From the IMG/VR virus record IMGVR_UViG_2531839207_000017: a DNA stretch of 9,928 nucleotides; one strand, given 5' to 3'. The notes under the pieces are model-generated. The model was not told the origin of the DNA, did not search any database, and saw nothing but the letters and a program-made list of their open reading frames with translations. Both the position numbers and the translations under genes were made by a program. The DNA comes from a virus (Duplodnaviria; Heunggongvirae; Uroviricota; Caudoviricetes). This document shows positions 1,275-5,706 of this stretch, in pieces; position 1 is the stretch's first letter, and each line of letters begins with the position of its first letter.

Positions 1275-1734
1275 CGCTTTCCCCCCACGTCACATCCTGG
1301 AATACATGCGACCAGTCGCCTTCGGAAGATGGCAGGCGGGGTTTTGGCTCCGGAAGGTGTTCTGCCTGCGGTGTGCCCTGACTGCTGCGCGTGATGCGAA
1401 CACGTTCCCGCAGGGGAAGCGTAAACAGGAGATCGGCGCTGTCATCGTCATTAATAACGGCAGAGAATTTGATGTCCTGATTACGCTCAGGGTTGAGCAA
1501 CAACTGTGGCTGATTTTCGGATAACCACGCCAGTAACGGCAGCGTGAGGTCGTCCAGCTCCCCGGCGTAATCCATGACAAACATCACCATCTGATAGCGG
1601 TAAACAAACGATGGAGTTTCTCCGGTCGTTTCAATGTTGCCGCTCTCCACGAAAATGGTGAATTTTTCCGGGTTGGCCTGACACCATCGGCATGAACGGG
1701 TCATGGCTTCACGCAGGGAATCAGTTTTCAGCAT
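1267..1734 (-). CDS. R: Tail completion protein R (P2 gpR-like)
   Basis: 155-aa ORF starting MLKTDSLREAM, very similar to the P2 gpR N-terminus as recalled and the same length class. Follows the spanin genes as in P2. Confidence 0.85.
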   Translation of the reverse strand: MLKTDSLREAMTRSCRWCQANPEKFTIFVESGNIETTGETPSFVYRYQMVMFVMDYAGELDDLTLPLLAWLSENQPQLLLNPERNQDIKFSAVINDDDSADLLFTLPLRERVRITRSSQGTPQAEHLPEPKPRLPSSEGDWSHVFQDVTWGESDG

Positions 1735-2041
1735 GGTTGTTGTCCTCGTTGTTCAGTCGTTGCAGCCTGCGCTGTTCCAGTAATTCAATGGCCCGTTTAT
1801 CCGCGTTACAGGTTTCAAGTGCATCCAGAAGGCGGTCGCCCCATATACCGAGATTTCCCCATGTGGGAGTATCAGGGAAGGGGGGAGGCATTACCGGTAT
1901 GGTCAGCGTCTGCGGTATAAGCCGGACTGACGGCGCTGGCCGTGGCGCGTTCTGCGTGCCTGCGCAACCTGTCAGTAAAACGAGCGTCAGGCAAAGCGTG
2001 GGCGCATTCATCTTTTGCAATATCGTTGCGTAGCTGTTCAC
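1721..2041 (-). CDS. lysC: Rz1-like outer-membrane spanin (o-spanin lipoprotein), LysC-like, overlapped with the i-spanin gene
   Basis: Translation contains a lipoprotein signal with lipobox LLTGC followed by a proline-rich mature region (PRPAPSVRLIPQTLTIPVMPPPFP). The ORF starts inside lysB in a different frame and extends past its stop, the overlapped architecture of P2 lysB/lysC. Start is ambiguous: GTG at 2039..2041 (GGAGAGG upstream) or ATG at 2009..2011 (gives 96 aa). Confidence 0.65.
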   Translation of the reverse strand: MNSYATILQKMNAPTLCLTLVLLTGCAGTQNAPRPAPSVRLIPQTLTIPVMPPPFPDTPTWGNLGIWGDRLLDALETCNADKRAIELLEQRRLQRLNNEDNNHAEN

Positions 2042-2279
2042 GTCTGGCCTCTCCGTCCTGATTTCGCTGTTGATTTTCCACGCGGAGTTGCGCCAGCACC
2101 TGCTGCATATCCTGTACCCCGGCGCTGATGATATTCAGGGTGTCGGCGGTACGTTTCAGGGTGCTGGCCTGCGCTTCGTTTCTGGCGTTCTCCCGGCCCA
2201 GCGACCATGACAGACGCATGGATGTTCCCCATGCGGCAATCAGAAGGAAAGCGACACCCAGCGTGGGCCAGAGCTTCAT
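1872..2279 (-). CDS. lysB: Rz-like inner-membrane spanin (i-spanin), LysB-like
   Basis: Start taken at internal ATG 2277..2279 (MKLWPTLGVAFLLIAAW...), which overlaps the endolysin stop (ATGA). N-terminal hydrophobic segment, then a Q/R/E-rich predicted coiled-coil region. The track's longer 183-aa version begins in the endolysin's alternate frame and is rejected. Confidence 0.7.
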   Translation of the reverse strand: MKLWPTLGVAFLLIAAWGTSMRLSWSLGRENARNEAQASTLKRTADTLNIISAGVQDMQQVLAQLRVENQQRNQDGEARREQLRNDIAKDECAHALPDARFTDRLRRHAERATASAVSPAYTADADHTGNASPLP

Positions 2280-2668
2280 GCCGGATAGGCTCCGTGTGGT
2301 AACTGAAAATGCGGTCCGTCTTTCAGGGTCTTCCAGTCGCCGCCCCATTCCACCGGAATATTCAGCTCCCGGCTGGCCTGTCTGAATGCTGCTGCGATTT
2401 TTTCGTACAGCGGCCATTCCCATGACACCTGGCTGCCGATATAAGCCACAACATCCACGGCATGTCCCGTAAGGTGGCGGCTGTTCATGGTCTGGCTCTT
2501 ACCCGTGGCCACAAGTTGCTTCTGGCGGTAACGGCTGCGCAACCCTTCGGTGATACCAAAATCCACTTCCGAAATTTCCAGTGCCCGTCGGGTCACTTTC
2601 ACCAGATCAGGATTTACGCCCTGCAAATTCTTTTCGCTCCGGCTGCTGAATTTAAATGTGTTGCTCAT
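2276..2668 (-). CDS. Endolysin, peptidase M15 family (zinc D-Ala-D-Ala carboxypeptidase / L-Ala-D-Glu endopeptidase type)
   Basis: 130-aa ORF with the M15 metal-binding signature SRHLTGHAVDV ... HFQLPH (His-Asp ... His). Strong RBS (GGGGGAAGGAGAAGGA) upstream of the ATG at 2666..2668. Sits in the position of the P2 K lysozyme but belongs to a different enzyme family. Confidence 0.85.
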   Translation of the reverse strand: MSNTFKFSSRSEKNLQGVNPDLVKVTRRALEISEVDFGITEGLRSRYRQKQLVATGKSQTMNSRHLTGHAVDVVAYIGSQVSWEWPLYEKIAAAFRQASRELNIPVEWGGDWKTLKDGPHFQLPHGAYPA

Positions 2669-3696: not shown

Positions 3697-3772
3697 TGAA
3701 AAAATCGGGCGGTGGGTGCGTGGTGTAAACGGTCACGGAGTCAAACCGGAACACCGCGCACGCCGCCCGCTG
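3697..3772 (-). terminator. Candidate intrinsic terminator / structured RNA element between M and L
   Basis: On the - strand, a GC-rich imperfect long stem (CGGGCGG...GTGCG... pairing with ...CACGCACCCACCGCCCG) is followed directly by ATTTTTTC and then the L ribosome-binding site. The stem is imperfect and the loop is large. Confidence 0.35.
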
Positions 3773-4603: not shown

Positions 4604-4622
4604 GGCGGGCATGATGCCCGCC
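4604..4622 (-). promoter_or_regulatory. Perfect 9-bp inverted repeat (GGCGGGCAT g ATGCCCGCC) between the N stop and the M RBS
   Basis: Read directly in the sequence. Lies in the 45-nt N-M gap, with no U-tract following it on the transcribed strand. Confidence 0.3.
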
Positions 4623-4631
4623 GTGAGTTGA

Positions 4632-5683
4632 TTAGCTGTCGGCGAACTTCAGGCCAGTGACCATCGCGCACTTGCCATAGTCTTCAACGACATAAGCATC
4701 GTTGATGGACTGGTAGGTGGCGATGCGGTTGTATTCCGGCTCGTCTTTCATCAGGCGACGCATTGTTCCTTTCTGCCAGTAAATCGACAGGTTGTTGAAC
4801 GAGGTGATCAGCATCGTTGAATCCGGGAAGAACGGCGCAAGGAATACATCCAGCCCGCCAATGGCGCGCGATGACAGGATGAGCTGTCCGGCAAGTAATT
4901 CCGCATTGGGATTCTGGCCGCTGATGCTGTTCAGCACGGGCAGACGCAGCGAGTTAAACAGGTTGCGCCCCATAATCACCACGAGGTCGTCAGCTTCCTT
5001 GTGCCATTCATCCAGCAGGGATGAGCGCGCGTCCTGTACCAGTGCATCAGCGTTCGCATACTTACCCGCGTGCGCCACGGTGTTGTCCATGTTGCGGGAG
5101 GTCAGCGTTACATCATTCATAACGCGTTCACTGGCATCGGTTCTGATGTGCTCCAGCCAGCCCACGTTAACGTCCTGAAGCAGCTTGTTGGTGCTGAAGT
5201 TGGACTCATCTGCGTGAGACGTGCCATTGAAACCGATCATGATGCGGTCAAGCGCCACCTGCCGGGCAATCTGTGTGCTGACGCGGGACTGAAAATCAGG
5301 GTGTGCCGCCCAGGCATCAAGCTGCGGATACGAAATAAACGTGTCGTAGTTCACCTGTTCGCACTGGTATTTGCGGTTTTTCAGATCAACCACGTTATTC
5401 GGGTTACGGCGTTTTGTGCCGTCATAACTGGTATTCGTGCGCGCAATCGGCCCGGTGGTATCCAGGAGGATTTTTTCGCCTTTCTGGTCGGTCACACCGA
5501 ATACGTTAATTTTTTTGTAAATTCAGTGCTCTCCTTTACTGCGTTTTCAAAACGCTGCTGCACCGAGGGTTCTACGGTAAATCGCGATACCAGTGCAGAA
5601 ACCGGGATATTGTTAAGCGACGCCTGCTGCGCCATATAGCAACCCAGTTTGTTGCGGGTAATATCTGACATCACCAGATTCAT
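4632..5683 (-). CDS. N: Major capsid protein N (P2 gpN-like), reading frame interrupted at an A7 homopolymer (possible pseudogene, assembly error or recoding site)
   Basis: Two adjacent - strand ORFs (5492..5683, 63 aa; 4632..5495, 287 aa) together align to the P2 major capsid family (FTVEPSV near the N-terminus, DQKGEKI just after the break, YVVEDYG near the C-terminus). The frame changes at the A7 run on the coding strand (T7 at 5510..5516 on +). One extra A, or a -1 slip, restores TKK-INVFGVTDQKGEKI. ATG at 5681..5683 with AGGAG upstream. Confidence 0.8.
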
Positions 5684-5706
5684 AAAAAATTTGCTCCTTT
5701 GTCTTA

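Follow-up and report, generated by a model that had tools for sequence, protein, structure and literature searches.

The capsid gene N is split by a single-base contraction

The window analyzed here, the whole 9,928-nucleotide (nt) stretch of IMG/VR record IMGVR_UViG_2531839207_000017, is a late-gene segment of a P88-like prophage (Xuanwuvirus, Peduoviridae) and carries the P2-family major capsid gene N on its minus strand (4632..5683). N is frameshifted in the window and measures 1052 nt, as opposed to the 1053 nt expected. The gene is preceded by a ribosome-binding region on the same strand (5684..5699), made up of an AAGGAG (5699..5694) and a T6 spacer (5689..5684), and begins with an ATG (5683..5681). 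A run of seven A's (A7, 5516..5510, minus strand; T7 on the plus strand) follows the first 58 codons (...E F T K K) and is the site of a 1-bp contraction, as intact relatives have eight A's (A8) here. The upstream frame reads ACA AAA AAA TTA, which places A_AAA_AAA, a slippery heptamer of the X_XXY_YYZ type, in the zero frame. An internal AAGGAG (5536..5531, minus strand; codons GTA AAG GAG) is separated from the run by 14 nt (5530..5517).

Past the run, the zero frame continues as TTA ACG TAT TCG GTG TGA and ends after 63 codons. The resulting open reading frame (ORF1; 5492..5683, minus strand) encodes a 63-amino-acid (aa) N-terminal capsid fragment with the end ...TEFTKKLTYSV and the TGA at 5494..5492. 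The C-terminal fragment of 287 aa is encoded by ORF2 (4632..5495, minus strand), which runs from a GTG start at 5495 to a stop at 4632 and overlaps the stop of ORF1 in the sequence GTGA. From the run onwards, the ORF2 frame reads KKINVFGVTDQKGEKI..., and the frame one base back reads KK INVFGVTDQKGEKI... and stays open down to 4632. One added A or a -1 slip thus yields a protein of 350 aa. The frame lesion is deterministic, so that chance is no issue. The initial annotation had described this change of frame at A7 between 63 and 287 codons, the zero-frame heptamer, the upstream AAGGAG and the P2-like continuation after an extra A or a -1 slip; all of these readings and their coordinates hold.

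The break point also falls within the capsid sequence, as had been proposed. In the PF05125 profile (length 327), ORF1 covers positions 4-49 and ORF2 positions 54-324, placing the break between positions 49 and 54. The repaired 350-aa product matches positions 4-324 in a single stretch with 400 bits. It also exceeds the TIGR01551 cut-off (256.8 bits vs 219.65), while ORF2 alone stays slightly below it with 215.2 bits. In the late operon, the gene is flanked by O (scaffold/protease) and M (small terminase), as in the gene tables of P88, PhiR44_2, and 15 related loci, with all of which the window is collinear at 96-98.5% identity. The late genes follow the canonical order Q, P / O, N, M, L, X, holin, endolysin of P2-family phages. 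Judged by these profile matches, the predicted product is unambiguously the P2-family major capsid protein gpN. It differs from gpN of intact phages such as the Xuanwuvirus P88, which have A8, in that the gene is split by a 1-bp deletion; a functional capsid gene is expected to be one uninterrupted ORF, and the window instead holds the 63-aa and 287-aa pieces.

At least 1000 contigs have a record identical to the repaired protein, and the translation of N from phage P88_4B11 also looks the same. The RefSeq entry of the latter (NC_049391.1; N at 1538..2590) annotates only a 489-nt 'major head protein' and an antisense hypothetical protein. This is an annotation error and no frameshift, as the 350-codon N is intact there with A8.

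Re-initiation at the GTG at 5495, which would produce a capsid protein lacking the 63 N-terminal residues, was considered as another reading; no Shine-Dalgarno (SD) sequence lies ahead of that GTG. In HK97-fold capsids, the N-terminal arm is required for assembly.

Run length in related phages and prophages

The window shares 96-98% identity with 16 phage records. Prophages matching it are present in 1213 of 5426 finished Escherichia coli genomes; none is identical and the best reaches 97.9%. P88 itself is an inducible phage that was obtained by induction (PMC5285337).

Alignment of the window with P88, PhiR44_2, and P88_4B11 showed A8 and an intact 350-codon ORF in all three, and the one A missing from the run is the sole indel inside N relative to them. 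For the other 13 full-length phage records, the length of the match fits A8. Among 209 finished E. coli records, 206 contain the exact A8 version of a 60-mer, and no exact A7 or A9 version was found in any of them. The 40 contigs sampled from IMG/VR comprise 38 with A8, two with A7 and none with A9, and all 15 metagenome contigs from the Joint Genome Institute (JGI) have A8, with neither A7 nor A9 present. Pooling these unbiased samples (finished E. coli records, IMG/VR and JGI contigs) with the 16 phage records (280 in total), A7 amounts to 2/280 or 0.7% (95% confidence interval 0.09-2.6%). The comparison of homopolymer length in relatives that the initial annotation had called for therefore reveals in-frame A8 as the norm.

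The run is not a conserved feature of gene N. Sister alleles, with 93-96% protein identity, read ACG AAA AGA ATT (T-K-R-I) at this position and lack a run, and distant homologues of N read ACC AAA ATC or ACC AAG ATT.

Enterobacterial P88-like capsid genes were also encountered in two assemblies with Firmicutes labels. One was found in Vagococcus sp. WN89Y (NZ_JBQPOM010000071.1) with 93% protein identity, and one with 99% protein identity was found in a Clostridiales metagenome-assembled genome (SFIM01000060.1). Both labels likely reflect contamination or mis-binning.

Recurrent contraction of the run

The split form of N recurs in public data. Exact copies of the 63-aa product of the window, which ends in LTYSV, are present on 5 Logan contigs, and a commoner 63-aa variant ending in LTCSV is present on 157. 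The 287-aa product was found on 67 contigs and in 83 index blocks of the collection. A 59-aa product ending in TKKN*, present on 121 contigs, matches the expectation for A9 (ACA AAA AAA AAT TAA); the A9 state is thus read from the protein and not from DNA, and the samples from IMG/VR, metagenomes and finished genomes contained no A9. For comparison, each of two sequences of the A8 product is present on at least 1000 contigs.

All 15 loci that were retrieved via the split products have A7. Together with the two IMG/VR cases, A7 is found on at least 15 distinct 1.2-kb haplotypes, and for six of these there is an A8 twin with identical 600 bp on each side. Furthermore, the prophages that carry A7 differ in their cargo genes and tail fibers. 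Contraction, real or miscalled, has therefore arisen independently many times over.

The run in N, once A8 is restored, is the longest homopolymer of the 9.9-kb window, and longer runs are known to have higher indel rates (PMC8510543). In the IMG/VR sample, the other coding runs with 6-7 bases showed no change in length at two T7 runs (0/31 and 0/27), with a single exception at a C6 (1/18). The recurrence of A7 is what slippage would be expected to produce at the most vulnerable site in this set of genes. A7 and apparently A9 arise independently and repeatedly at this hot spot, and make up roughly 1% of copies.

Intergenic homopolymers of the same region vary freely among relatives, and the coding runs of 6-7 bases are essentially invariant. 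More specifically, the T run between the ribosome-binding site and the ATG of N (5684..5689) is T6 in 21 and T5 in 17 IMG/VR loci, and the A run between L and M (3699..3704) is A6 in 15, A7 in 10, and A9 in one.

A second frameshift in the holin gene

N had been described in the initial annotation as the one late gene of the window that is not a single ORF. This proved wrong, as the holin gene (lambda S-like, PF05106; 2665..2987, minus strand) has a frameshift of its own, with one base missing between 2781 and 2782. The deletion is seen relative to all 13 comparators and shortens the product from 107 to 74 aa, with loss of the C-terminal third. Relatives read CGG[G/T]TTTCC at the site and the window reads CGGTTTCC; the base is missing from a run of 3-4 and not from a long homopolymer. 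The same truncated holin was found once more in public data (GCA_902703015.1), on a haplotype with 98.2% identity, where it results from a different DNA change. All remaining late genes tested in the window are intact.

As read in the sequence, N and the holin gene bring together within 9.9 kb more than one inactivating lesion in essential phage genes, which is the mark of a defective prophage. The window resembles cryptic and defective prophages, in which structural genes decay by frameshift, in that synteny is otherwise preserved and late genes have indels of a single base, with two of these (N and holin) in its 9.9 kb, and other A7 carriers also show additional lesions. It differs in that decay would be at a very early point, with the other tested late genes intact and N without any amino-acid change other than the frameshift.

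A genuine deletion or a sequencing artifact

In the account that we favor, with modest confidence in it as a whole, the window is a copy of a P88-like prophage (Xuanwuvirus, P2 family) with a disabled N. The A8 in codons 56-59 (ACA AAA AAA ATT, T-K-K-I) would have lost one A by replication strand slippage. Standard decoding would then produce the 63-aa N-terminal fragment and leave the other 292 codons out of frame, so that full-length capsid protein would not be made at useful levels and no heads would be built. With the second 1-bp deletion truncating the holin, the element would probably be a recently disabled, decaying prophage. The run itself would be a hot spot of mutation, with repeated and independent contractions to A7 and, apparently, expansions to A9.

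The initial annotation had named three candidate explanations for the split gene, namely a sequencing or assembly error, a genuine deletion in a prophage, and recoding, and had considered the error most likely. The three candidates were well chosen, but the ranking of the error as most likely is not clearly borne out. If the error were the cause, the organism would have A8 and an intact N, one A would have been lost in base-calling or consensus, and the holin would be affected likewise. The site is the longest homopolymer of the region, both lesions of the window are 1-bp deletions in runs, and the repaired protein is a very common one, all of which fit such an error. The local haplotype of the window including A7 is, however, identical over 1166 nt in a separately assembled public run (SRR495236; locus L006), which is the best-matching locus overall (99.89% over 4.6 kb, no gaps). 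More than 160 contigs, drawn from many projects in NCBI, ENA, and Logan, have exact split products. All other runs of at least 6 bases in the window have lengths that are seen in relatives, which argues against a generally error-prone assembly, and the holin deletion occurred in a run of just 3-4 bases. Together, L006, the contigs, the normal length of the other runs, and the holin lesion lean toward a genuine deletion in a defective prophage.

Several observations weigh against a genuine deletion. L006 may share its strain, or even its reads, with the window. A7 was found in none of the 209 finished E. coli records and in two of the 40 draft-derived IMG/VR contigs (p = 0.025), and this confinement to draft data, shared by A9 in its absence from the finished records, hints that some A7 calls are technical. 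The repaired N has no further amino-acid change, so that the lesion, if real, must be very young. The length of the run may also reflect an error of assembly or base-calling.

The further late genes of the A7 loci bear on both explanations. Additional broken late genes were counted as 7/194 in A7 loci and 3/342 in A8 loci (p = 0.04), a difference that rises to p = 0.07 to 0.11 once the window, the reference locus, and the visibly error-laden locus L005 are removed. A higher number of broken late genes in A7 loci would fit relaxed selection after inactivation, but the extra lesions, in several A7 loci, are mostly 1-bp homopolymer deletions, which are also a signature of error-prone platforms. 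The enrichment is marginal and amounts to no more than a hint. No further lesion was seen in at least six A7 loci for which 13-15 late genes were covered, which speaks against an artifact. In addition, A7 locus L004 and its A8 twin L053 share a contraction from G6 to G5 near the 3' end of the tail gene X, with 84 aa as opposed to 66 for the product; this change at the C-terminus may be tolerated and need not inactivate the gene.

Weighing these points, the deletion in N is probably genuine. The window is most likely a recently disabled prophage copy and less likely a pair of consensus errors, and we regard the artifact as possible but doubtful.

Possible recoding and phase variation

The third candidate explanation assumes that the A7 allele is rescued by recoding, through a ribosomal -1 slip on A_AAA_AAA or through addition of an A by RNA polymerase, so that useful amounts of capsid protein are made. 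The arrangement in N invites comparison with the frameshift signal of dnaX, in which A_AAA_AAG has an SD-like element 10 nt ahead of it and is followed, after 5 nt, by a stem-loop (PMC1851650). For sites of this type, an SD-like sequence is looked for about 10-14 nt upstream and a stable structure about 5-9 nt downstream. N shares with it a heptamer of lysine codons in the right frame, from which a -1 shift restores the exact wild-type sequence, an SD-like AAGGAG, here 14 nt 5' of the run, and a branched RNA fold that is predicted to start 5 nt beyond the run (5431..5504, minus strand; -25.4 kcal/mol, z = -2.9 for 80 nt). In the overexpression vector pDEST17, C_AAA_AAA caused 25-60% frameshifting in E. 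coli, and some leak at the N site is thus mechanistically possible. Several A7 prophages are, moreover, intact apart from N.

The site also differs from dnaX. The heptamer of N ends in A and not in G, and in E. coli a -1 shift is much less frequent on A_AAA_AAA than on A_AAA_AAG (PMC5009743). Both flanking elements belong to the ordinary coding sequence and occur as well in in-frame A8 alleles and in an allele that has no run, where no shift is needed; the AAGGAG consists of K-E codons. The predicted fold has z values of -2.9 to -1.9 with its distant 3' arm included but of about 0 in windows of 45-60 nt, and it is predicted as well in a Salmonella allele that lacks the run (z = -3.0). We therefore rejected the downstream structure as evidence of frameshifting; on the basis of these predictions, it may reflect local mRNA folding that is conserved and has nothing to do with the frameshift.

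The layout itself also argues against recoding. Among the relatives examined (phages, finished E. coli genomes, IMG/VR, and metagenomes), the out-of-frame arrangement is not conserved, and in-frame A8 is the norm in viable phages as well. The run is absent from sister alleles. Apparent A9, which a -1 ribosomal slip could not repair, is about as frequent as A7. Acting on an A8 gene, the same signals would cut short, at 59 residues, the late protein that is made in the largest amounts, so that efficient signals should be selected against, and in the A7 gene the shift would be demanded at codon 58 of a protein that is needed in hundreds of copies per head. The length of the run also argues against rescue by transcription. 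For RNA polymerase, eight A's have been described as non-slippery and nine as slippery (PMC1088944); the seven A's of N should slip little, fall short of the tracts of about nine or more A/T known from insertion sequence (IS) elements and mxiE-type genes, and represent a change in the wrong direction. In view of this, we consider rescue of A7 by recoding very unlikely. The initial annotation had likewise ranked programmed recoding last and had held that related prophages with an in-frame gene and no run would argue against it; relatives in frame with A8 and sister alleles without the run are what we found.

Bacterial 'pseudo-pseudogenes' (Baranov et al. 2005, PMC1088944) and 'savior' indels (Atkins et al. 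2016, PMC5009743) are a related precedent, as they too have a frameshift within a stretch of A's, at which slippage of the polymerase or ribosome could in principle recover the reading frame. They differ in that the bacterial cases extend eight A's to a slippery nine, whereas the run in N shrinks to seven. By analogy, the A7 allele could still be a leaky pseudo-pseudogene, in which dnaX-like chance signals would give enough -1 shifting for authentic gpN, and the A8 run would then be a reversible rheostat of particle production. We hold this to be a most improbable reading. If it applied, weak particle production would persist in A7 prophages and perhaps, via polymerase slippage, in A9 prophages as well, and the rheostat would reside in a family of prophages that roughly one in five finished E. 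coli genomes carries (the 1213 of 5426 given above). Rescue by -1 recoding would yield the junction peptide ...TEFTKKINVFGVTDQK.

The length variation of the run could also be a selected, reversible on/off switch of particle production by phase variation among A7, A8, and A9. Natural length variants exist in both directions, with A9 read from the protein, and they have independent origins on many haplotypes. The off variants are rare, however (2/280), the run is short for a contingency tract, and it is not kept in sister alleles, where AGA interrupts it (T-K-R-I), or in distant ones. Extra lesions in A7 loci suggest dead ends rather than switching. Furthermore, the common E. coli codon choice for T-K-K-I gives ACA AAA AAA ATT. 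Phase variation is exceedingly unlikely on these grounds.

Consequences for annotation

The lesion in N is an ordinary, recurrent homopolymer frameshift or pseudogene in a prophage, of a kind that is already known; it is no new recoding site, and knowledge of recoding is unchanged by it. For annotation, ORF1 and ORF2 should be recorded as one frameshifted capsid pseudogene and the holin gene likewise as frameshifted, neither as new genes nor as a recoding site. Should the lesions prove real, the appropriate score for this copy of the prophage is non-inducible or defective.

The mildly notable point is the hot spot at population level in a family of prophages that is very widespread in E. coli. 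P88-like prophages have a predictable weakness in the A8 run, with about 1% of copies at A7 or A9, and the run is useful as a natural marker of recent prophage inactivation and as a check on homopolymer errors in assemblies.

Additional features of the late region

A scan for promoters and terminators around N returned nothing beyond chance. A perfect 8-bp GC-rich hairpin (GGCGGGCA TCA TGCCCGCC) is located at 4604..4622 on the minus strand, 10 nt past the stop of N. It has no T tail, is invariant in four aligned sequences, and was not called by the terminator scan. This hairpin may be an mRNA-stabilizing or attenuating element between N and M.

The slot 5' of the portal gene, from stbB (Plasmid_stab_B) to the portal, holds a cargo set that differs in nearly every prophage. 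It spans approximately 3.9-6.0 kb in the coordinates of loci L004 and L009-L018 and corresponds to the region past 9500 in the window. Its contents include HTH_3/Peptidase_M78 with DUF3368, DUF4760 with a 280-aa ORF, DUF3800, Ead_Ea22, Gp49/HTH_37, and a 459-aa ORF without a known family. This slot resembles the variable hot spot for accessory or defense genes that P2-like phages are known to have.

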